Notes under the pieces: model-generated
What the model saw: only the letters and a program-made list of their open reading frames with translations
Told to the model about the DNA's origin: nothing
Database searches by the model: none
In this document: piece by piece, positions 4,964 to 44,606 of the stretch
Layout: each line of letters begins with the position of its first letter
Position numbering within the stretch: the stretch's first letter is position 1
Translations under genes and position numbers: made by a program
IMG/VR virus record: IMGVR_UViG_3300005512_000063
Location: 1 to 46,501 of that record
Length of the DNA: 46,501 bases
Source of the DNA: a virus
Taxonomy: Duplodnaviria; Caudoviricetes
Direction: 5' to 3' (one strand)

Positions 4964-6868
4964 TCACATGTAATACGGTGAGAAGTAAGACCAGTAACCT
5001 GTCTTCTCGGGATTTAAGACAACACATTCTTTGTGAATAAACTTCCTATTGAGCCGATAAGATAGAGAATAGGTGTTAATTAAATCTCTAATTTGTTCAG
5101 GAGACAACTGCTCCTCTCTTAACAGCAGGTTTTCGTACTCGACCATATCTCGGCGTAACCCGTCATATTCTGGGGGCAAAGATCTGTAAGGAATAGTTCT
5201 TATCTCATCGAGAAGACGTTTGGCAGTAAATACGATGTCTCCCGGGCTAGTGTATTCGTCTATCACTAGCCTCGATGTCTCAGCGTCACTATCGCTAACC
5301 CCAGTAGCGAGGCGTTCCCAACCAACTTCGTCCATCCCGCCTTGAGAGAACCTTTCTGAAATACGTTTGGCAACTTTATCTCTAGTAGTCTGATCTTTGA
5401 GATCTCCGTCTTCATCGAATTCGGTAAAGTCGAGATTCTCGCTAGATACCGGAGATCTACTAGATAACATCTGACCGATGGCGCGTTCGCCCAGGACCGG
5501 TGTGTCACTTTCCCCGGCATCAGCGGACTGAGGTTCTCCCATACCCATCTCAGCGGGCATATCTACCTTCTCGAGAGAGGGAATTTCCAGCTTATCTCTA
5601 ACCCAATCAAGATCGCTAACGTTATAGCCAATTGCTTGAAGCTGAGTAAGCATCTGTACAGTCTTGACAGGGTCTTCTCTCTGCTCGAGATCGTCGAAGT
5701 TTCTACGAATCCTCGGTACCGAGGCCCCGGGATAATTTAACTCCGTAAGCCAGCGTATCAACGTTGCATTCAACGTTTCGTCTAGTTCTTCTGAAAAACT
5801 CTTCGCTTTTCTCATCCGTACAGAATCAGCTACGGAATCACGAGCATATGACCCGGTGCTACCCGTATCCTGTCCGACTGTATTCTCTCCGTTGATGAGA
5901 AAACTAATCTGCTGATCGATGTAAGAGATTAAACTTTCATATATTTCCGGTCTACCGTCAGCTTTTAAAAACTCAATGGACATCTCATCGGGTATAGTTA
6001 TCGACGTTTCCTGTCCCAGCCTCTGTAAAGCTGTAAATAGTGATTTAACCTCCTCTTCAGGCGTACCTAGACTAAATTTTCCCACCGCTGTGGGAGTCGT
6101 ATGCTTATCGGCATACTGGAGCCAGAAAGACATCAAGGTGCGGCGGAATTCCACCAGGGAGTAGATTTGTCTACCTAGACCAGTTCCGTACGGGTCCATG
6201 ATGCTGCTATATGCCCAGTGGCGATGAATTATCATCGATCTCAGGGGTATTGGCAATCCTTCTACCGGAGATTGAATGGTAATAATTCTCGGGCTTACAG
6301 ACCCATCCGTATTCAGGATAAACTGGAAGCGTCTGGGATCTCTTATCTTAATCTCTGACGGAACGACATAGGAGCCCTGTCTCACCCAGCAGATTTCACC
6401 AATACTGATGCCTAAGATCAGCGATTCGCACATGCCACGGATAAAAGCATCAAAGCCTGAATTAGCTGTGACAACCATGTCACGACCACGACTCTGAACG
6501 CTATTACTACCCATGTGGTATAATGCTTGGCGAATAAATTCAGCTACTTCTTCGTCTTTATCGCTATCGGAGGCGGGGTATACTTCCCATTTTCTAGCTA
6601 TAATCTCTCCAACTAACTTTTCCCAGGCACTAATAACCGCGCTGTCGTTGAATAACCGGATATAGTTCTCAATGGCCCTAGGACCGCCTCCGGCTTCGGA
6701 GATGAGGATCTCGTCCCTACGAACCAGTATGGTATTACCGGATACAGTTGGAACCCCGTTATACTGATAAGGGTCACCTATGTATCCGGCTAAAGACCCC
6801 TGACTTAGCCCGAGATTATATAAGCGGTCATTGTATCCAGTTTTTACGATGCGCTTCTTATCTGCCAT
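4964..6868 (-). CDS. Portal protein, Mu gp29-like (DUF935), with a long acidic C-terminal extension
   Basis: DPYGTGLGR..Y....F.R.....W..YADKH..P and IDQQISFLINGE...GSYA motifs. Start moved to ATG 6868 (track start 6883) from its spacing to the motif at 6894-6903. Confidence 0.85.
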   Translation of the reverse strand: MADKKRIVKTGYNDRLYNLGLSQGSLAGYIGDPYQYNGVPTVSGNTILVRRDEILISEAGGGPRAIENYIRLFNDSAVISAWEKLVGEIIARKWEVYPASDSDKDEEVAEFIRQALYHMGSNSVQSRGRDMVVTANSGFDAFIRGMCESLILGISIGEICWVRQGSYVVPSEIKIRDPRRFQFILNTDGSVSPRIITIQSPVEGLPIPLRSMIIHRHWAYSSIMDPYGTGLGRQIYSLVEFRRTLMSFWLQYADKHTTPTAVGKFSLGTPEEEVKSLFTALQRLGQETSITIPDEMSIEFLKADGRPEIYESLISYIDQQISFLINGENTVGQDTGSTGSYARDSVADSVRMRKAKSFSEELDETLNATLIRWLTELNYPGASVPRIRRNFDDLEQREDPVKTVQMLTQLQAIGYNVSDLDWVRDKLEIPSLEKVDMPAEMGMGEPQSADAGESDTPVLGERAIGQMLSSRSPVSSENLDFTEFDEDGDLKDQTTRDKVAKRISERFSQGGMDEVGWERLATGVSDSDAETSRLVIDEYTSPGDIVFTAKRLLDEIRTIPYRSLPPEYDGLRRDMVEYENLLLREEQLSPEQIRDLINTYSLSYRLNRKFIHKECVVLNPEKTGYWSYFSPYYM

Positions 6869-6891
6869 GCGGCTATGGGTCACTATTCTTA

Positions 6892-13892: not shown

Positions 13893-14198
13893 CTACAGCT
13901 TTACAGAGCGTGATTTACCGCTAAGTCCGAGATATTTAGCTATCTCTCTAGTCATCCTATCCGCGAGCTTTTTATCCTCTGCGGACAGAACACTGGGCTT
14001 GCTTTTCTCACCTGAGTCTTCGACAACTGGAACATCCTGTACGGGTTCGGGGTCGGGGACTTGAGTCTCCGGGGTAACGGGCTTCTCGTAATCCTTCATC
14101 ATCTGCAAGCTGTCGGCTACCGCCACCTCTTTGTTGCTGTCGTCTAGCCCACTCTCTCCAAGCTGCGATTTGTTCCTTTGTGAACGAGTTGTTGCCAT
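13893..14198 (-). CDS. Hypothetical protein
   Basis: 101 aa. ATG is about 42 nt downstream of the motif at 14231-14240. Confidence 0.6.
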   Translation of the reverse strand: MATTRSQRNKSQLGESGLDDSNKEVAVADSLQMMKDYEKPVTPETQVPDPEPVQDVPVVEDSGEKSKPSVLSAEDKKLADRMTREIAKYLGLSGKSRSVKL

Positions 14199-14235
14199 GA
14201 TACATCGGATAATGTGTGCTTATCTTACTGAGCTT

Positions 14236-15231
14236 TCAACGTTTTTCGAGCCAACGAGAGATTGTATACGCACGGCACGGGGAACACAGGCGGCAAAGAA
14301 ACGGGAGACTGGCGGTGCGGATACCATGGCTGAGATAGGACGCAAGCGCACTGTGGTCTAGCGGCCCGGATCGAAGTTTGTTCCGGATTCGTCGGATCGT
14401 TGACTTTCTGACCAAGCGGTACCTTGGCCAGTGCCTATACCCGACCCAGTCGATACCGGCCGAACACGTCCCAATATGGCTGCAGGGGTTGAGAAAGAAA
14501 CCGAGTCCGTTAAGACGGCGTTCTATGCCAGATAACGCATCCACCGCTTCATCCCGGCTCTCGAACACTGCGACCATGTCGTCGCAGTACCGGAGGTAGG
14601 TGTCGATGCCCAGATCCCGCCTCGCGTGATGGTCGAGAGGGTTGAGGGCGAGATTGGCTAGAATCTGGCTGGTACTAGCACCGATAGGTATCCCTTTTCC
14701 GGTGTCGTTAACCCTGACGAACAACTCCAAAAGACTAATAGTCTTTTGGCACTTGAACACCCGCCGGACTTCGGCCATCAACGCGTTGTGGTTGATGCTG
14801 TAGAAAAATTTGCTTACATCGGCCTTCAAATAGTACTTGTACCGGCCGGTTGACAAGTAATGCGACAGTTGTTCCGAGCACCTATGGACGCCGCGACCGA
14901 TCAGGCAGGAGTATGTGTGGTGGATGAGTTTGTTCTGGACAGGGATCCGGATCGCATTACACACAGCATGTTGCACAATGCGGTCTTCGAGATGCGGGGC
15001 GTGGATCAAGCGGGCTTTTGTGTCGCGGAGCGTGAATTCGTAATGGGGTTTGGGCTGGTATGTGCCATCACGTAACGACTCAAGAACACGCTCTAAGTTG
15101 GCAACTAGATCGTTTTCGTAACGCAATATTAACCCTCTCTCCGACTTCCCGCGCTTAACTTCCCTCCATGCCGTATACAACGAGTCGAATGTGCAGATTT
15201 GTTCCCAGGTGTGGTTAATTTTTCGGGGCAC
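14236..15231 (-). CDS. DGR reverse transcriptase
   Basis: 331 aa. DRIVQHA, YSCLIGRGVH, LKADVSKFFYSI, GIPIGASTSQILAN (DGR-type GxxxSQ), YLRYCDD and IDWVGY motifs. Confidence 0.95.
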   Translation of the reverse strand: MPRKINHTWEQICTFDSLYTAWREVKRGKSERGLILRYENDLVANLERVLESLRDGTYQPKPHYEFTLRDTKARLIHAPHLEDRIVQHAVCNAIRIPVQNKLIHHTYSCLIGRGVHRCSEQLSHYLSTGRYKYYLKADVSKFFYSINHNALMAEVRRVFKCQKTISLLELFVRVNDTGKGIPIGASTSQILANLALNPLDHHARRDLGIDTYLRYCDDMVAVFESRDEAVDALSGIERRLNGLGFFLNPCSHIGTCSAGIDWVGYRHWPRYRLVRKSTIRRIRNKLRSGPLDHSALASYLSHGIRTASLPFLCRLCSPCRAYTISRWLEKR

Positions 15232-15371
15232 AACAAGACGCTCGCAGTTAGTTCGCTACTAGAATCGTTGTGCCATAGTAATTCGGGAACAAGTTCCCTA
15301 GACTAATCTCCACCTTTGAGCACCACACGGTGTACAGCCGTAACCATACATCTCGGGGGTGGATGTGCTCA

Positions 15372-15490
15372 AATCGGCAAGACCGCCCGCCGACGTTCTG
15401 GTTCGTGTTGCCGGAATCGTTGTTCAGATTCACCGCAAAGGACCCGGCATTAGCGCCGTTGTTCCAGTTACCGCCAACATGCGGGAGCAT
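15372..15490 (-). repeat. DGR template repeat (TR)
   Basis: 119-nt match to 15913-16031. Contains 26 adenines on the coding strand and 10 AAC/AAT codons. Lies between avd and RT. Confidence 0.95.
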
Positions 15491-15496
15491 TGGAGT

Positions 15497-15865
15497 TTAA
15501 CCTACCTCGCTGGCGGAGAGAAACGGGCTAAGCCGTTTTCCCACGCCAGTGAGGATGTTATTGGCTGTTCGGAATTTCTTTAGGTCGATATGCCCGCAAT
15601 CGTAAGATAGTTGTAGGAGGTTTTTGAGTAACTCTTTTTGCACGGAGAACTTTGTAAAATCAGTCTTCTTGTGTACCTTGAGACGGACACACACTGCCAA
15701 TTCTAACATAGAATACCCACAATCTCGCATTTTGGCCGAGAGAATATGTTTTTCGTACCTCGGCATGTTTAAAGTGATTACGTTAAGGTATTTGCACAAC
15801 TCCCTGCACTGCTTTTCGCAGAGAAGATACGGGTCGTCTTTTCGAGAGAGGGTAGTTTCTGACAC
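15497..15865 (-). CDS. avd: DGR accessory variability determinant (Avd-like four-helix bundle)
   Basis: 122 aa, basic, with MPRYEKHILS motif. Positioned between target and TR. Confidence 0.85.
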   Translation of the reverse strand: MSETTLSRKDDPYLLCEKQCRELCKYLNVITLNMPRYEKHILSAKMRDCGYSMLELAVCVRLKVHKKTDFTKFSVQKELLKNLLQLSYDCGHIDLKKFRTANNILTGVGKRLSPFLSASEVG

Positions 15866-15870
15866 GGATT

Positions 15871-15892
15871 TAGAATTGCTATCGCAATTCTA
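15871..15892 (-). promoter_or_regulatory. DGR target-recognition hairpin/cruciform
   Basis: Perfect 9-bp inverted repeat TAGAATTGC/GCAATTCTA. The loop reads GATA on the coding strand (GRNA type). It begins 8 nt after the target stop codon. Confidence 0.85.
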
Positions 15893-15899
15893 GCATAGG

Positions 15900-17405
15900 T
15901 TAGACAGAGAGGAAGCGGCAAGACCGCCCGCCGACGTGCTGGTCCGGGTTGCCGGAAGCGTTGAGCAGAACCACCGCAAAGGACCCGGCAGAAGCGCCGT
16001 CGAACCAGCTACCGCCAACACGCGGGAGCAAATCGGACCTATGGGCTCGGTACAGGCCGTCACCGCCGAAAATATTAGTTGATGTCTGGGTGAGGCTGGT
16101 ACCCGCTTGACGCGGTAAACCAAATTCCGCCATGGCCTTGCGGGTAGCGTTAGCGGACCAGGTCGAGGAGGGGTGATACGTGCCGCCGGCATTGGGCACC
16201 AAGTAGATCCATGCGTTGTCGTTGCCCCACCACACACCATCATCCGATACGTCGGCAGCAAGAGAGATTACATTAGCGGCCCCGGTAATTCCCGCATTGC
16301 TGGATACGGCTGTGTAGTCGTCGAGGTCGCTGAAAGCCTTGTAGCCGGCGTTCGTTCCGGTGTTGTTGGTAAGGCCGGGCGTCACGTCCCACTGGTTGCC
16401 GTCGACATCCACAATCCCGCACAACTGTCCGTTATGAGTCGTTTGCTCGACGGCTGAAAGTGTCCCGATCCGCGCCGCGCCGGTAAACGCTCGGCTGGCT
16501 TCGCCAGCCCAACCACTCGCGTTACCACCGACATCGGTACGAGAGAATACCAGACTCGTCTTATTGACATCAGAACCGTCATTATTATTGCCCTTCGGGG
16601 CATAGGGGGCTTCGTCCATCCAAGCCGCGTTGACTATCGCACCAGAGATTGGGACCCCACTGTTATCTAGCAGGGCCTGAGAATGAGCAAGGGCTAAGTA
16701 CCCCAAATGAATCCTGGTCCACATCGGTACGGGGTACCAATCGCTACCGCGACTCTGACATACTGCCCACACCCCCCCGTAGTTGTTAGACGGTGTAGTA
16801 GCAGAAGAATTAAGAGCGGTGCTGTTGCAGTAACTAAACGGACTCCGGAGGGTGCCGCTAATGCCAATCGCCGACACCGGCCAGTGCAAGGGTCGGGAAG
16901 CAAAGATGCCGCCGGAACTCGGAAGAGTTCCTGGGAGACCATCGCTGCTGTTAGGGCGGCCGGACCCATCGGGCAGACAGTTACTACCCTGATACTTATC
17001 GACAAACACACCGGCCAGTTCGCTACCCCCATTCCTAAACGCTTTCGCCAACACGCCGTTGCCGGATTGCGTGGAGGATATTACGACTTTTGTCAAAAAC
17101 GCATCATTGCCACTGCCCGGTGCTTCTAGGTCGATATAGTGGGAGGGTAAGAAACAAACAATACTAGCCGAAGGCAAGTGTATATAGTTACCATAATTCG
17201 GGCTAAACCTATCCGTTGTACCGGGTAGCTCGGCAATATCGCTGGGCAATAACTCTGGTCGGCAGCATCCGACACCGAAACCGGTAAGCCCGGCCAAGCC
17301 TATAGTATACTTGAACTCGTCGGCGTAGCCGTACCAAGAGTTATCAATGTTCCACAAACCCCTGGGACCTATAATTCTCTCTTTAACTTTTAATAAAATA
17401 CTCAT
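15900..17405 (-). CDS. DGR target protein with a C-terminal CLec/FGE-sulfatase-like (Mtd-like) variable domain; putative receptor-binding protein
   Basis: 501 aa. FVDKYQGS, HNGQLCGIVDVDGNQWD and RVGGSW...AGSFAV...GGRSC motifs. Contains the VR. Confidence 0.88.
   Translation of the reverse strand: MSILLKVKERIIGPRGLWNIDNSWYGYADEFKYTIGLAGLTGFGVGCCRPELLPSDIAELPGTTDRFSPNYGNYIHLPSASIVCFLPSHYIDLEAPGSGNDAFLTKVVISSTQSGNGVLAKAFRNGGSELAGVFVDKYQGSNCLPDGSGRPNSSDGLPGTLPSSGGIFASRPLHWPVSAIGISGTLRSPFSYCNSTALNSSATTPSNNYGGVWAVCQSRGSDWYPVPMWTRIHLGYLALAHSQALLDNSGVPISGAIVNAAWMDEAPYAPKGNNNDGSDVNKTSLVFSRTDVGGNASGWAGEASRAFTGAARIGTLSAVEQTTHNGQLCGIVDVDGNQWDVTPGLTNNTGTNAGYKAFSDLDDYTAVSSNAGITGAANVISLAADVSDDGVWWGNDNAWIYLVPNAGGTYHPSSTWSANATRKAMAEFGLPRQAGTSLTQTSTNIFGGDGLYRAHRSDLLPRVGGSWFDGASAGSFAVVLLNASGNPDQHVGGRSCRFLSV
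15913..16031 (-). repeat. DGR variable repeat (VR)
   Basis: 3' end of the target gene. It has 17 mismatches to TR, all at TR adenines, and an invariant GC-rich tract GTCGGCGGGCGGTCTTGCCG near its 3' end. Confidence 0.95.
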
Positions 17406-17764
17406 TGTCTAAGCTCCCAAGCCTCATTAATATCCGGAGTAGAGGGGTCGTCCGCAATAAACTTACCTTCCTCGTCTCTAGCTCTTACCCAAAAGTGAGG
17501 GAAAAATGTCACGGGATTGGGAAGCTCTTCGTAGCTAATTTCCTCCAGAACCCCGGTGTTCTTCTCTGACCAGCTATTCAATAGCTCAATAGAATCGGAA
17601 TGTGACATCCAATAGTCGTAGCCGGTGTGATTATTGGCATCGGGATCGTTATTTCGTTCCAGACAAATTACCGATATGAGGGGGTTACCAAATTCGTCGG
17701 ATTCCGGTGGCTGGACCGGAAGCCCCTGGTCTTCCGGCAACGCCCTGTAGTAACGTGTATACAT
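17402..17764 (-). CDS. Hypothetical protein
   Basis: 120 aa, with an ATGA overlap with the DGR target. Ends in RARDEEGKFIADDPSTPDINEAW. Late motif at 17788-17797. Confidence 0.7.
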   Translation of the reverse strand: MYTRYYRALPEDQGLPVQPPESDEFGNPLISVICLERNNDPDANNHTGYDYWMSHSDSIELLNSWSEKNTGVLEEISYEELPNPVTFFPHFWVRARDEEGKFIADDPSTPDINEAWELRQ

Positions 17765-17792
17765 AGCTGGGTAAATACTTACTATCTAGCTT

Positions 17793-18080
17793 TCAACAAA
17801 AGCTACCAGATTTAATATCAACCACATTATACTGACCCAGGTCTAAAGGTGCAAGATCTTGTCCTACCCCTGCTACAGGGCCGACACCGAAGGGTACGGT
17901 GCCTGGAACACCGATGCTGTAGCTTCCTTGAAACCTGATCGCCTCTGCTTCGGAAAGAGTTTTCAAGAGGGTCTTTAAACTCTCATAGTTAATCCCAGAA
18001 GTACCCGACAATACCCCGTTATCATTATACTGAAGTTCTCCGCTGTTGCCGGAGACATTAGGTTGAGAATAAAACGACAT
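17793..18080 (-). CDS. Short or truncated paralogue of the DGR target N-terminus
   Basis: YSIGVPGTVPFGVG...YNVVDIKSGSFC aligns with YTIGLAGLTGFGVG...GNYIHLPSASIVC of the target. The stop codon is the TGA inside the GTTGAAAGCT motif. Confidence 0.55.
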   Translation of the reverse strand: MSFYSQPNVSGNSGELQYNDNGVLSGTSGINYESLKTLLKTLSEAEAIRFQGSYSIGVPGTVPFGVGPVAGVGQDLAPLDLGQYNVVDIKSGSFC

Positions 18081-18797: not shown

Positions 18798-19139
18798 CTA
18801 GCTTTCACCGCAGCCGGGTATGTCTGATGAATCCGTAGACTCTTCGAGAAGATTGCTGGAGACATCGGACGCAGAGAGATATTCCCCGGTCTCTGCCCAG
18901 CGCTGCCAACCCCACACCTCTTCGTTACAGAGTGTATGAGGCTCCTGGGCTGCTGAATCAGCGACTCGAGCGCGGAGATTTCTTGAAGGCCCAGGATTAA
19001 CCCTGTTGCTGCGCAACAGATATTCGGGTTGCCTAAGCATCTGCCTCGTAAGCGCACTGGCTTGAGTTTCACGAGACCGGTAATCAGCCTCATCTCTCTC
19101 GTCCTCCCAGTGCCGGTACGGATTACTCTGTACAGCCAA
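18798..19139 (-). CDS. Hypothetical protein
   Basis: Likely TTG start at 19139 after GGAGG, 30 nt downstream of the motif at 19161-19169. The track start (19181) lies upstream of the motif. Confidence 0.55.
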   Translation of the reverse strand: MAVQSNPYRHWEDERDEADYRSRETQASALTRQMLRQPEYLLRSNRVNPGPSRNLRARVADSAAQEPHTLCNEEVWGWQRWAETGEYLSASDVSSNLLEESTDSSDIPGCGES

Positions 19140-19160
19140 ATTTACCTCCCCCTCTACCCT

Positions 19161-19197
19161 GCTTTCAACGCAAAATGGCAAAAAACCGTTGAAAGCT
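19161..19197. promoter_or_regulatory. Back-to-back pair of GTTGAAAGC putative late-promoter motifs (representative of about 20 copies)
   Basis: GCTTTCAAC at 19161-19169 and GTTGAAAGCT at 19188-19197 each point to an adjacent divergent gene. Confidence 0.7.
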
Positions 19198-26852: not shown

Positions 26853-26880
26853 GCCCACCGTAACGGTGGGCTTTTTTTTT
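26853..26880 (+). terminator. Rho-independent terminator
   Basis: GCCCACCG-TAA-CGGTGGGC followed by T9. Confidence 0.9.
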
Positions 26881-27898
26881 ATGGATTATATATTTTCCAC
26901 CCCTTGTGGCTATCTGATTTCCCCGTGGAAACGTATGATAATCTACCTCTTTGTAATCCTAGCTCAGGGAACTTTTTAATAAGTTCAGAACAGCTAAGGT
27001 TTAAGTGAACCCCGTGCTTATTATGTATCCAGTTAAATCCGTTTATTTCTGGCTTAGATTCGGGGTCTGCTTTAAAAATTTTACCTTGATTTTTGTATAA
27101 AATCCATCCTTTGTGGCTTTTAGCTTTTCCAATTGATACTTTGCTTAAACCCGATAAGGTTAAAGCCTGATCTTGAAATTTTAAAACCATTTCTGCACAT
27201 GAAAGGTTGCTTATTTTTCCGTAATTTAGATGATACCAGTCGAATGACTTTCCTCTTTTAGACTTTATTTTCTCTAATTCTAAGTCTATGTTTTTATTTT
27301 CAAGTAAAACCCACCGTTTGTGATGATTTTCTTTACCTAGGGCAACTTTTACTAAGGCAGATCTGTCTAACTCTTGGTCTAAAAACATTCTAGCTAGTTC
27401 ACTAGTTGATACTCCTAACTGCTCCCCGTGGTCCGGGTGATACCAGTCATAGAACTTAGAAAGAGTGTTAATTGTTTCTTGTGTATGGGTAATCCCAAAC
27501 CGATTATGCAATGGACCCTTTAGACCGTACCTTGGGTTATTCTGCCCCGACATTCTTTTAGAGATAATATTTCTTACTCTTTGGGTGGGGTTGGAACATC
27601 CTTCTCCTCCATTGGTCAAATTACGCAAAATTCCCCATTCTGGGAAAGCATCTGCGCGTCCGTACAACTGAATAAATTTTTTCTCGTATTCAAAGGCTGT
27701 GTCCTCGTCAAGGTCTTTATGAAGAATCTCTATAAAACTGATATCTTTAGGTCTTTTAATAACCCTGCCTGATTTTTGATACGGCCTATTAGGTTTACCT
27801 TTACCAATATAATATACGGTCCTGTACCGTCCAAACCGGTCGTCGCGGTCCCGATAAAAAGCGTACACGACAAAGTTGTTTACAGGTTTGCGGGGCAT
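26879..27898 (-). CDS. Free-standing GIY-YIG homing endonuclease with NUMOD-like DNA-binding repeats
   Basis: VVYAF...YYIGKG...R, AFEYE, LRNLTNGGEG, MSGQNNPRYG...HTQET, and three W.H...G...L....L....L..V..GK...HK.W repeats. AT-rich and antisense to its neighbours. Confidence 0.85.
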   Translation of the reverse strand: MPRKPVNNFVVYAFYRDRDDRFGRYRTVYYIGKGKPNRPYQKSGRVIKRPKDISFIEILHKDLDEDTAFEYEKKFIQLYGRADAFPEWGILRNLTNGGEGCSNPTQRVRNIISKRMSGQNNPRYGLKGPLHNRFGITHTQETINTLSKFYDWYHPDHGEQLGVSTSELARMFLDQELDRSALVKVALGKENHHKRWVLLENKNIDLELEKIKSKRGKSFDWYHLNYGKISNLSCAEMVLKFQDQALTLSGLSKVSIGKAKSHKGWILYKNQGKIFKADPESKPEINGFNWIHNKHGVHLNLSCSELIKKFPELGLQRGRLSYVSTGKSDSHKGWKIYNP

Positions 27899-30850: not shown

Positions 30851-31264
30851 ATGGAAACCGAATTCATCGACGCTTTAACAGCACAGTACAGTCTCGCCGG
30901 AGCAGCTCAGCTCGCCCACTGGAACTCAGTGGGAGAAAATTTCTACTCCTTTCACCTCCTGTTTATGAGAATTTACGAGATGGTGGAAGAAAAAATTGAC
31001 AACCTTGCCGAGCAGGCAAGAGGCAAGGGTGTTGAGATTCCTGCTAAAATCTTTAGCAGTGTCCCCGAGATTGAATGGGACGATTGTAGTGAGTTAGCTA
31101 AAGAAGTTCTTGAGGTCTGTGAAGAGCTATGCGATGCTCTAGATAAACTACACAAAAAAGCTGACGAAAAAGCTGAGTACGGTGTTCTTAATGTAGTCGA
31201 AGACATCATGTCCGATTGTAACACAGTGAAGTACCTGCTCAGCTCTATTGTTAACAAAATCTAA
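30851..31264 (+). CDS. Dps/ferritin-like protein
   Basis: AHWNSVGENFYSFHLLF..IY.....IDNLAEQ matches the Dps ferroxidase signature. Confidence 0.85.
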   Translation: METEFIDALTAQYSLAGAAQLAHWNSVGENFYSFHLLFMRIYEMVEEKIDNLAEQARGKGVEIPAKIFSSVPEIEWDDCSELAKEVLEVCEELCDALDKLHKKADEKAEYGVLNVVEDIMSDCNTVKYLLSSIVNKI

Positions 31265-36123: not shown

Positions 36124-36453
36124 TCATCTTAGCACATCCTGATAGGTTGTGCGGCCAGAGGAAAAAAACTCGACGAGAGATGATACTACGTGGTCGGTAT
36201 CCACATCGCCGCAGGTGAAGATATCTACAGCCGCGCTTTGATACTCCGGCCAAGTATGGATAGAAAAATGTGAGGTAGTAAGAAGAGAGATTAAGGTGTA
36301 CCCTTGTGGCTGAAACTGGTACTCCATGGTGTCGACCACCTCGGCCCCCGAGGCTGCGAGTAGCAGACAGATATGGTCCCTGAACTCCTTGACGGTTCTA
36401 AGACGCCCCACATTAGCGCAGTCGTATAGGTTTAACAGGACGTGGTGCCCCAT
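36124..36453 (-). CDS. speD: S-adenosylmethionine decarboxylase proenzyme-like protein
   Basis: MGHHVL..LYDC...QFQPQG...SHFSIHTWPE...AVDIFTCG. Start reassigned to ATG 36453. Confidence 0.85.
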   Translation of the reverse strand: MGHHVLLNLYDCANVGRLRTVKEFRDHICLLLAASGAEVVDTMEYQFQPQGYTLISLLTTSHFSIHTWPEYQSAAVDIFTCGDVDTDHVVSSLVEFFSSGRTTYQDVLR

Positions 36454-36454
36454 A

Positions 36455-37276
36455 CTAGGTGTTAGGTTCAAGGTTCGCAACTAAGTAGACCTCGGTTACC
36501 GGAGGATTCTTACTTGCTTTCACCTCTTTGTAGTAATAAGATCTGAACAAGCTACTGTCGAACTGATCGGTCAACTCTGACCTTTTTCTGCCCCATTTTT
36601 CATACACAGAGCTGATGCAGATCTTATAGCCCATCTGTGCTAGTTCGGTTAAGTCCTTTAAATAGTGTTTAAATTTTCTTTTGGTCCAGAAGTAACCACA
36701 GCCGTAAGAGGCGAATTGGCCAGGGATATGAAAATATATAACAGAATTATCGCCTAACTCGGAGGTAGGAAAATTATAGATATTTCTCTTCCTATACTTA
36801 ATAACCTTATCTTTTTGGAGGTTAGACCAGCTCTTTATGGCCTCGTAATTAGGGGTAAGAGGATTATGTTCTCCTACCATCTTCCATTTATCATAACTGA
36901 CATTAAAACTACTCATTGACAATATACAGTAGTACCTAGACATATCTTCCCAGGTATTTAAATGCTTGGGACGAGAAAAGTTGTTATATGATGATAGCCA
37001 GGAGCATCTTGCTTGCCAATTTAAGCCGTTGTCAAAGGTGTTCTCCCACATATCTCTTATATAGATGGAGGAGGGGGGCACAGCTAGGAACTTATGTAAC
37101 TCGAGATGATATCTTTCGGTGGAGCAGATAATTAAGTTGTCCGATCCGCTTGCATAGGGTAAATCTCCTGATCCCACATCGAGAGTTAGGATTTTCTTTT
37201 CAGAAAAGGAGCTAAAATCGGACAAAAACTGCTCATGAGTCTTTGTCCCCCTGCCCGGACACAGTAACACGGTCAT
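36455..37276 (-). CDS. Degenerate Dam-like (D12-class) methyltransferase-fold protein
   Basis: Layout resembles Dam (DVGSG; SVIYFHIP; L..L...GYKICISS; EVYLVAN), but DPPY is absent. Confidence 0.45.
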   Translation of the reverse strand: MTVLLCPGRGTKTHEQFLSDFSSFSEKKILTLDVGSGDLPYASGSDNLIICSTERYHLELHKFLAVPPSSIYIRDMWENTFDNGLNWQARCSWLSSYNNFSRPKHLNTWEDMSRYYCILSMSSFNVSYDKWKMVGEHNPLTPNYEAIKSWSNLQKDKVIKYRKRNIYNFPTSELGDNSVIYFHIPGQFASYGCGYFWTKRKFKHYLKDLTELAQMGYKICISSVYEKWGRKRSELTDQFDSSLFRSYYYKEVKASKNPPVTEVYLVANLEPNT

Positions 37277-37674
37277 TTTGTCTTAAATTTTCTCCAATTT
37301 TTGCCAGTATAGTAAGAAATTAACTCATTTGAGAATATTCTTACCGTTCCGGGCTTAATCCCCAGCCATCTCTTTTTACTCCCCTCTTCAAACATCTTTT
37401 TTAACTTGTATTCCATGTCTTCCCCCGAAGATGTCACATGTTTTTCTACTTTTTTAAGTATTTCCACTAAATCGCTGTTTCTAATTTTAACAAACAACAG
37501 GGAACTTGAAAAATCTATAGTACTTCTTTTCTTGAAAGAGATAGATATATAAGAAGACGGATCTAGTTTAGAATAAAGCTCTAATTCGTTTATTTTTACC
37601 TCAAAGTACTCGTCCGAGCTAACACGGTGTCTGATAATGCGGGAAGAGGAACCCTCTAATGTACTCATTTGCAA
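37273..37674 (-). CDS. Hypothetical protein
   Basis: 133 aa, with a 4-nt overlap with the downstream gene. Confidence 0.55.
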   Translation of the reverse strand: MQMSTLEGSSSRIIRHRVSSDEYFEVKINELELYSKLDPSSYISISFKKRSTIDFSSSLLFVKIRNSDLVEILKKVEKHVTSSGEDMEYKLKKMFEEGSKKRWLGIKPGTVRIFSNELISYYTGKNWRKFKTK

Positions 37675-38257
37675 AATCCGGACCGAAGTACGACTTCAGT
37701 ATACCATGAGCCGGGTCGTTATCGGCCATATACCGGTCAAAACTTGAAAACCGGTCGGGATTAGGGGACTTGGACACTGCCATACCGGACAAAACACTTA
37801 TATAGGCCGATAAGCGCCTTTTACAATCTGTAACATACTGGCTGTAGAAGTTTTCTCTGTCCTTTTTGTGCCAAAGTTTATTGGAAAAGTAAATACCCAA
37901 GTCGTAATGCTTAGAACTCTGCACTTCTCTGTCCGGTTCAGAGCTAAAAACCGTATCTACTAGGTCATGTTCGCCGTTTGAGGGGTGAAAATCAGTAGCA
38001 CCGAAGTATCCCTTAGCTGTCATGATGTATTCAGAGCCAAAAATTGGGAAAAAAGACTCTGTGCAAGGGTAGATAAGAGAGGTTTCGGCAAAAAATTTGC
38101 CCGGAACATCAAAGATACATGTTCTTGCATATAAAATCCCCCTACTTCTGTCTTCGGACCACATCGATCTGAGAAGAGCAGGTTCTTTATAGCGAAGTTT
38201 ACTTGACCAACTAAGACCCGTAATGTTTTCTAGCCAATTTTCCTTTTTAAAAATCAT
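37619..38257 (-). CDS. Ferredoxin-dependent bilin reductase, PebA/PebS-like
   Basis: IYP...PIFGSE...DFHP...YD...YFS...FDRYMADNDPAHGILKSYFGPDFANEYIRGFLFP. Confidence 0.85.
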   Translation of the reverse strand: MIFKKENWLENITGLSWSSKLRYKEPALLRSMWSEDRSRGILYARTCIFDVPGKFFAETSLIYPCTESFFPIFGSEYIMTAKGYFGATDFHPSNGEHDLVDTVFSSEPDREVQSSKHYDLGIYFSNKLWHKKDRENFYSQYVTDCKRRLSAYISVLSGMAVSKSPNPDRFSSFDRYMADNDPAHGILKSYFGPDFANEYIRGFLFPHYQTPC

Positions 38258-44059: not shown

Positions 44060-44508
44060 ACACAGAAACCACATGGGCGGCAGGACATTATATACACAGA
44101 AATCACATCTAAGTACGCAGGGCCAAAATTTTTATCTATTAAAATCACATTTTCTCGACTAGATTATATACACAGAAATCACATTTATATGCACAAAAAT
44201 CCTATTTACTTACATAAAATCACACCGTTCGGGAAAAATTACCTACATAAAAATCACATTTACCTACACAAAAATCACATTTTCCCCAAAAATTACCTAC
44301 ATAAAAATCACATTTACCTACACAAAAATCACATTTTCCCCAAAAATTATATACACAGAAATCACATTTTTACCGTATTTTATATACACAAAAATCACAT
44401 TTACCTACACAAAAATCACATTTGTCCTGAATATTTTATACACAGAAATCACATTTTCCCCAAAAATTATATACACAGAAATCACATTTACCTACACAGA
44501 AATCACAT
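44060..44508. repeat. Iteron-like array of about 16 copies of 21-bp TTAYMTACAYARAAATCACAT; putative replication origin
   Basis: From 44239 to 44508 the copies start strictly 21 or 33 bp apart. Intergenic between divergent genes. Confidence 0.85.
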
Positions 44509-44606
44509 CGCCCGGAGGGGTCATTACCAGCACCAGGCCATATTTAGGGGGTAAACCCCCCTAAAACGCTATATATAGCGTACCTGACCCTTCGCCTTGA
44601 AGCCTT

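Follow-up and report, generated by a model that had tools for sequence, protein, structure and literature searches.

In the Bordetella phage BPP-1, a diversity-generating retroelement (DGR) with the order mtd-avd-TR-brt combines a target gene, an accessory gene, a template repeat (TR) and a reverse transcriptase (RT) gene, and its 144-nt spacer primes cDNA (PMC6182149). The residues SQ are a hallmark of DGR RTs (PMC11054128), and DGRs have been reported on predicted lytic phages (PMC7981956; PMC8143477) as well as on epsilon crAss-like phages, in which the RT may be fragmented or deleted while the target is kept (PMC11054128). A survey of DGRs in cyanobacteria could assign none of them to prophages and encountered none in either Synechococcus or Prochlorococcus (PMC7517822). 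Cultured TIM5-like cyanophages are described as lytic, with a narrow host range and low diversity, the isolates being lytic on two Synechococcus strains (PMC10087341). Here, IMG/VR record IMGVR_UViG_3300005512_000063, a single 46.5-kb contig analysed over its whole length (the window), was found to carry a complete DGR of the BPP-1 type in the genome of an S-TIM5-like phage. We regard it as quite probable that the variable repeat (VR) of this element is rewritten at template adenines and that this diversifies the binding of a predicted C-type-lectin (CLec) tail tip to cyanobacterial cells.

All parts of the element lie on the minus strand in the order target, hairpin, avd, TR, spacer and RT, and occupy the following positions.

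15900-17405, minus strand: target gene, 501 aa, predicted FGE-type CLec fold
15913-16031, minus strand: VR, encoding target residues 459-497, C-terminal in the target
15871-15892, minus strand: DNA hairpin behind the stop codon of the target gene, stem of 9 bp and GATA loop
15497-15865, minus strand: avd, accessory variability determinant, 122 aa (PF22296, phrog_3206)
15372-15490, minus strand: TR, 119 nt, 26 adenines, 10 AAY codons
15232-15371, minus strand: TR-to-RT spacer, 140 nt, predicted conserved structured RNA
14236-15231, minus strand: DGR RT, 331 aa, open frame, motifs GASTSQ and YCDD

The alignment of TR with VR covers 119 nt, needs no gap and contains 17 mismatches, all 17 of which fall on TR adenines; 17 of the 26 adenines are hit against none of the 93 other TR positions (chance 1.9e-14). 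In the frame of the target, the 10 AAY codons of the TR allow about 4e14 possible protein sequences. Both RT motifs are intact, with GASTSQ (GxxxSQ) at 184 and YCDD (YxDD) at 215, and the protein matches PF00078 (73.8 bits, cut-off 29.6) and phrog_1423 (E 1.9e-93). Avd matches PF22296 (50.2 bits, cut-off 40) and phrog_3206 (E 8e-13), its match to NCBIfam NF033474 (48 bits) being below the cut-off of 80. The sequence-only reading of this DNA had claimed this order of parts, the adenine-restricted mismatches, the AAY count, the RT motifs and the mutagenic-retrohoming architecture of BPP-1, and all of these were recovered on recomputation, the likeness to BPP-1 extending over gene order, hairpin, spacer size, motifs and C-terminal VR. 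Scanning the 46.5-kb window for a second VR returned none.

The non-coding parts agree with this architecture. DGR hairpins follow a GRNA-loop rule, and the GATA-loop hairpin of the window has a stability z of -4.6, with 1 of 200 shuffles equally stable. Hairpins with a 4-nt loop are also predicted 3' of the VR in six related loci (L003, L004, L076, L068, L009 and L005), a weaker one being found in L002. The anatomy is that of the initiation of mutagenic homing (IMH/IMH*) signals, with the hairpin 3' of the VR and TR and VR diverging past position 119. A consensus fold of 15 spacer sequences shows two-sided changes in 19 of 30 predicted pairs (counted without a shuffle control). By analogy with BPP-1, the 140-nt spacer is likely the cDNA priming element; its sequence likeness to the BPP-1 spacer is weak, and aligning the two gave no clear positional counterpart of the priming site.

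The strongest indication of activity comes from a sibling locus (L073) that is 99.8% identical to the window over 22,044 nt and has an identical TR. The two VRs differ by 17 substitutions, all opposite TR adenines, with none at the 93 other VR positions, while outside the VR only 10 substitutions in 21,925 positions and one 14-nt indel were found (Fisher test, 1.9e-14 for the TR-adenine positions versus the other VR positions and 1.5e-46 for the TR-adenine positions versus the rest). As a result, 10 of the 39 VR-encoded residues differ between the two alleles, residue 472 being a serine in both but encoded by different codons. Collapse of TR reads onto the VR cannot explain these differences because 10 of the 17 VR letters of the sibling occur in neither the TR nor the VR of the window. 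Two VR alleles are thus present on a near-clonal background, whether or not the assemblies are independent. In public run X2, a close relative is represented by a single TR contig together with two VR contigs that differ from each other, and the four full-cassette TIM5-like loci other than the window (L002, L003, L004 and L076) each have 0 non-adenine mismatches between TR and VR. The ratio of nonsynonymous to synonymous substitutions (dN/dS) of the RT is 0.047 against L002, indicating purifying selection, synonymous sites being saturated for the other three. Public runs were compared as contigs, and at this level of assembled alleles the DGR is active, as the sequence-only reading had supposed of its recent past.

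The target was modelled with AlphaFold2 from a 116-sequence alignment (pTM 0.85), residues 1-43 being unresolved in the model though conserved. Its best match in the PDB (Foldseek) is TaqVP (5vf4, E 2.8e-13), with which a VIA comparison gave a Z of 23.2 and a root-mean-square deviation of 3.4 over 297 aligned residues, followed by Mtd (1yu0, Z 11.8) and FGE-type proteins; the CLec fold claimed earlier is therefore borne out by the predicted model. Fold and gene position together suggest that the target is likely a receptor-binding tail tip. An unlikely alternative, though the most serious of those considered, is that the DGR is active on an accessory or non-virion ligand-binder, directed for example at extracellular matrix or an intracellular host factor. 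This would fit with the absence of the target from S-TIM5 and from 18 other TIM5-like loci spanning the slot, with the lack of a recognisable fibre anchor, with TaqVP rather than Mtd being the nearest solved structure, and with the fact that no PHROG or Pfam family names the target firmly (best tail match phrog_5302, E 8.5e-4). Against it, other fibre-like genes occupy the same slot in cassette-free relatives (L150, L161 and L094), the target follows a tail-fibre gene in podoviruses, as mtd does in BPP-1, its viral predicted-structure matches are mostly tail collar fibre proteins, and Roux et al. 2021 class the target cluster of the sibling L073 as phage structural (PMC8144416). Among the BFVD models, the target is matched best by D5GV96 (E 3e-16), which is annotated as a hypothetical protein and comes from Campylobacter phage CP220.

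Protein comparisons were made among 50,697 phage records. The polymerase of the window carries a mitochondrial-type exonuclease family (PF18136) and is nearest to those of S-TIM5, S-TIM54, S-TIM61 and S-TIM66 at 57%; the capsid is 80-81% identical to those of the same four phages, the gyrase 39%. Structural genes are syntenic with S-TIM5 and include capsid, portal and sheath of the S-TIM5 type. These comparisons identify the window phage as S-TIM5-like, in line with the Pol-gamma cyanomyovirus kinship proposed from the sequence alone. No RT was found in S-TIM5 and no target in cultured TIM5-like phages; the target query matched 3 of the 50,697 records and the Avd query 13, no cyanophage being among them, and the best 40 of the 157 phage records matching the RT likewise included no cyanophage and none above 36%. 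As previously read, no integrase family was found among the 47 window open reading frames (ORFs) scanned. Among TIM5-like records, 0 of 18 (1 complete) had a tyrosine integrase and 0 of 5 a serine recombinase, and psbA occurs in 2 of 5 large relatives. Kinship and gene context together suggest a Synechococcus-type cyanobacterial host, and kinship would also imply a strictly lytic life. A phage with a life cycle other than strictly lytic, or with a host outside the cyanobacteria, would void the contrast with temperate DGR phages; we consider this reading improbable. The window is 46.5 kb against 172 kb for S-TIM5, its polymerase is just 57% identical to that of S-TIM5 and its head genes belong to Mu-like families; against this stand the lack of integrase and recombinase matches in the records just given, the lytic isolates on Synechococcus (PMC10087341) and psbA in relatives. 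The contrast itself, which the sequence-only reading had drawn with temperate DGR phages, is weaker than was claimed, since predicted lytic DGR phages have been reported (PMC7981956; PMC8143477).

To place the element within the TIM5-like group, loci were gathered by RT, target and capsid searches (80 of 133 being retained from the capsid scan), and 8 duplicates or near-copies of the window were removed before counting. Collection by target inflates the numbers of full, remnant and target-only loci. With this proviso, 29 TIM5-like loci in which the slot is spanned, or which hold target and right flank, comprise 4 with a full cassette, 1 remnant (L068, where the start of avd is fused to the end of the RT), 5 with the target only and 19 with neither. 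With the window included, 11 loci bear the target, and avd-TR-RT (hereafter the engine) is full in 5, a remnant in 1 and missing in 5. The four further cassettes lie in the same slot, with RT identities of 70-88%. In a backbone tree of 28 rows, from which L002 and L003 were left out as holding too little sequence, all target-bearing loci, the window included, fall within one separate 11-row subclade (support 100). The cassette thus recurs in one TIM5-like subclade, where its engine is repeatedly missing.

In the target tree and likewise in the backbone tree, targets lacking the engine are spread over three distinct positions, and their junctions differ, which suggests that avd-TR-RT was lost at least twice and probably more often. 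An assembly artefact in which TR and VR collapse onto each other does not account for these loci, because it would take the hairpin and avd only, yet the RT is gone as well. In one case (L063), the orphan VR has 2 non-adenine mismatches in 90 positions relative to the TR of L004, against an identity of 86% over the remainder of the gene; either the loss of its engine is therefore recent or the VR was refreshed. Other orphan VRs have drifted (27-38 mismatches). A 209-nt contig of run X4 (depth 3, shorter arm 47 nt) connects 14241 with 15886. Compared by eye with the TR of that run, the 30 letters left unplaced show differences at adenines only (8/8), a weak hint that engine-bearing and engine-less forms coexist there. 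No RT was found elsewhere in the 127-kb record G001 (79% complete), and a search for the RT family in 50 TIM5-like records, mostly fragments, returned only a near-copy of the window. Finally, the window backbone is nearest to L004 and L063, whereas its RT is 88% identical to that of L002 and 71% to that of L004; this conflict points to cassette exchange within the subclade, so that regain by recombination is as possible as loss.

Engine loss in 6 of the 11 target-bearing loci, and evidence drawn from contigs and not from RNA or reads, are what one would cite for the window element being a recently silenced relic, with VR alleles that became fixed in the past and have since been passed on by recombination alone. 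We give this very little credence: siblings with just 10 substitutions across 21.9 kb carry different letters at 17 adenine positions, no non-adenine drift separates TR from VR, and the RT keeps its frame, its motifs and a low dN/dS.

An RT tree (IQ-TREE with 41 of 103 rows, in agreement with a FastTree run of the full set) places the window RT within a clade of TIM5-like RTs (100/100) that is sister (100/99) to RTs of other viral contigs at 50-57% identity, among them podovirus and siphovirus DGRs. The joined clade holds 14 rows on one side (5 TIM5-like loci and 9 proteins without context) and 17 rows from other phages on the other. Five sister-clade records all have an integrase family match, 4 of them over cut-off. 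The terminase of one (L009) is 71% identical to that of the freshwater podovirus Synechococcus phage S-SRP02, in which an integrase is present and no RT was found; the capsid of another (L005) is nearest to that of the siphovirus S-CBS4 (47%). One sister-clade copy, target included, sits on a contig of a Synechococcus metagenome-assembled genome (MAG); no integrase was found on that contig. A target pattern search of GTDB species genomes returned none, a scan that misses relatives at 60% (the MAG contig holds the target), and 1 of 401 genomes of the family of this MAG matched. Relative to the window, the sister-clade phages have targets at 59-64% and a 120-aa companion (see below) at 31-43%, with avd, TR and a predicted spacer fold in common. 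Judged by these likenesses, one cassette family spans three cyanophage types, podo-, sipho- and TIM5-like. Because the cassette is confined to one TIM5-like subclade, its gain there is favoured.

Several observations concern individual sister loci. The DGR clade L005-L026 and L171 comprises S-SRP02-like podoviruses and an S-CBS4-like phage, mostly bearing integrases. In L064, L067 and L072, of this same group, the target is kept without an RT. Two loci (L019 and L020) come from a phage with a GC of 0.52, have a 2,500-aa gene downstream and lack the 120-aa gene; their target groups beside the TIM5-like targets while their RT falls in the other clade.

Two small genes upstream of the target and two copies of a short motif accompany the cassette.

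17402-17764, minus strand: 120-aa gene, overlapping the target start and accompanying the target in both phage groups
17793-18080, minus strand: 95-aa gene with a C-terminal conserved module of ca. 48 aa, candidate adaptor
17790-17797, minus strand: GTTGAAAG motif, 33 nt before the 120-aa gene
14233-14240, minus strand: second GTTGAAAG motif, overlapping the RT stop, at the right border of the block absent from relatives

The 120-aa protein matched no family in Pfam, PHROGs and NCBIfam scans and had no usable match in the ESM Atlas. In podoviruses, the ca. 48-aa module is found at the end of the tail-fibre protein and also of one or two proteins of small size. Genes that carry it include 17793-18080 in the window, 6138-6884 and 7081-7347 in L009 and 5547-7277 in L014. 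A profile of this module matched only upstream of the target family (33,153 ORFs in 216 loci, themselves chosen by these queries). The 95-aa gene is weakly like target residues 31-60 (hhalign E 0.002, probability 14%), and a PHROGs scan of 14 module proteins gave one match (E 0.055), none being named. The module is a candidate docking element. Complex prediction with the target, the 120-aa protein and the 95-aa module scored 0.01 against a mark of 0.32, a value that has no bearing on binding.

The window contains the GTTGAAAG motif 18 times, where 1.6 occurrences would be expected; 10 of the copies lie 20-45 nt before a listed gene start (sites include 4939, 6903, 8250, 17797, 20517 and 27942), and the genes behind it are mostly structural (portal, tube, sheath and adaptor). 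A copy stands in front of the 120-aa gene at 16 of the 18 TIM5-like loci and at none of 31 other phage loci (duplicates included), and does so in L060 and L078 despite a different upstream gene. Its density is 3 to 7 per 10 kb in the subclade versus 0 to 1.4 outside, S-TIM5 having 1 in 49 kb. Position makes it a candidate late promoter of the subclade. A conserved gene of 113-127 aa (18798-19181, minus strand) also lies behind GTTGAAAG throughout the subclade and matched no family.

That a small-phage DGR was joined to a TIM5-like contig as an assembly chimera deserves almost no weight, for although the nearest outside relatives are in other phage types and the GC of the target is 0.56 versus 0.46 for capsid and polymerase, four independent TIM5-like contigs carry the same cassette in the same slot, their RTs and targets form clades of their own, and the motif of the subclade borders the cassette.

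Other features of the window were noted as well. Two overlapping ORFs in different frames (13893-14198 and 14008-14205, both minus strand, 101 and 65 aa), which may form a dual-coding gene pair, are both present in 5 of the 6 TIM5-like loci compared; the 65-aa product has a conserved N-terminus and a CxxC at its end. An AT-rich array of 21- and 33-nt repeats without long ORFs (44060-44520), near the contig end, is a possible origin or terminal region. A homing-endonuclease-like gene (26879-27898, minus strand) is inserted, on the opposite strand, between the genes for capsid and adaptor and is absent at that place in S-TIM5. The window also encodes a Dps-like ferritin (30851-31264), an S-adenosylmethionine decarboxylase (36124-36480) and a divergent ferredoxin-dependent bilin reductase (37619-38257).

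A number of points weigh against an active DGR on the tail tip of a lytic cyanophage, or temper parts of that account. The evidence for variation consists of assembled contigs and not reads; two assemblies (L001 and L059) have the VR of the window with 11 substitutions elsewhere, and these, the window and L073 may or may not be independent samples. The place of the target on the virion is deduced from its fold and position. TaqVP, the closest to it among solved structures, carries the label of a Thermus aquaticus protein, and the candidate adaptor is missing from L060 and L078, two loci with the target only. The promoter role of GTTGAAAG is read from position, and two copies overlap stop codons. 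The donor of the cassette is not set by the tree because the two RT clades are reciprocally monophyletic. The DGR-bearing subclade is known from incomplete genomes, so that an integrase may lie elsewhere; no psbA was found in G001, the only large target-bearing record, and the bilin reductase of the window is just 26-30% identical to cyanophage homologs.

Taken with these reservations, the preferred account of a tail-tip DGR would run as follows. The GTTGAAAG motif of the phage itself may drive a late transcript of the 120-aa gene, target, avd, TR and RT. If the BPP-1 mechanism applies, RT and Avd would copy the TR RNA, primed by the folded spacer and with adenines misread, and the cDNA would replace the VR beside the hairpin, an anatomy that is present here. 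The resulting alleles differ only at TR adenines, as seen between the two siblings. The altered protein would then be carried on the tail and selected on host receptors. The trees suggest that the cassette entered one TIM5-like subclade either from smaller picocyanobacterial phages or from a source common to both, was swapped within the subclade and had avd-TR-RT deleted at least twice, leaving a fixed target.

A broader proposal, which we hold only tentatively and consider rather doubtful as a whole, is that of a portable hypervariable tail tip, put together from a shared docking module, the 120-aa partner, a CLec head and the DGR engine, that may be traded among podoviruses, siphoviruses and large myoviruses of picocyanobacteria. 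In the lytic TIM5-like subclade it would have come under the subclade's own late promoter as a switchable mutator, a winning allele being frozen by deletion of avd-TR-RT and refreshed by recombination, or in trans during coinfection, with both genome forms coexisting.

For arms races over host range, picocyanobacteria serve together with their phages as a standard model. A programmed mutator of a predicted receptor-binding protein in a subclade sister to the cultured TIM5-like phages offers a handle on such races, in that VR alleles can be tracked over time and tested on Synechococcus or Cyanobium, and close relatives with and without the engine provide a natural comparison. If the phage is indeed lytic, the DGR must complete its cycle within one infection.

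The DGR mechanism itself is already known. Supplementary tables of Roux et al. 2021 already contain the RT, target, TR and VR of the sibling L073, classed as viral with taxonomy NA, and at least these entries assign the element to DGR clade 4 and target cluster PC_00002 (PMC8144416). Searches of the open literature, which consisted mainly of listings and the openings of abstracts, excluded subscription papers and bioRxiv supplements and also covered PMC6182149, PMC12691664 and PMC7824862, showed no report of a DGR in a TIM5-like or other picocyanobacterial phage, and "reverse transcriptase" and "retroelement" have 0 occurrences in the TIM5-like (PMC10087341) and S-SRP02 papers. The novelty suggested from the sequence alone therefore stands for the lineage, where the DGR is apparently undescribed, and falls for the element as such, a sibling having been catalogued without taxonomy. 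What appears to be new is the host lineage, the family across three cyanophage types, the wiring to the subclade motif and the repeated loss.

Among the closest known systems is the clade 4/PC_00002 entry, where the RT of L073 is listed as an identical protein (PMC8144416). BPP-1 shares with the window its gene order, the hairpin after the target, a spacer of similar size (144 versus 140 nt), the SQ and YxDD motifs and a C-terminal VR in a CLec fold. It differs in its RT (31% identical to Brt) and in being a 42-kb temperate phage, whereas the window phage is large, has a contractile tail and encodes a polymerase of its own; its target is larger than Mtd, nearer to TaqVP and accompanied by two extra small genes. 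TaqVP, although the best structural match, is only 19% identical, and the window target exceeds it by ca. 120 residues and has a conserved N-terminus that the monomer model does not resolve. S-TIM5 (Aurunvirus) and S-TIM54, S-TIM61 and S-TIM66 resemble the window in capsid, polymerase, gyrase and synteny at the identities given above, but S-TIM5 has no RT and none of the four has the target. The DGRs of epsilon crAss-like phages resemble those of the window subclade in occurring in large phages with a TaqVP-like target and RT loss, and differ in belonging to phages of gut Bacteroidota with an uncertain lifestyle and in having a GxxxSP motif (PMC11054128). Finally, the chromosomal DGRs of filamentous cyanobacteria share with the window the class of retroelement and the phylum of the presumed host, while their targets are cellular multidomain proteins (PMC7517822).

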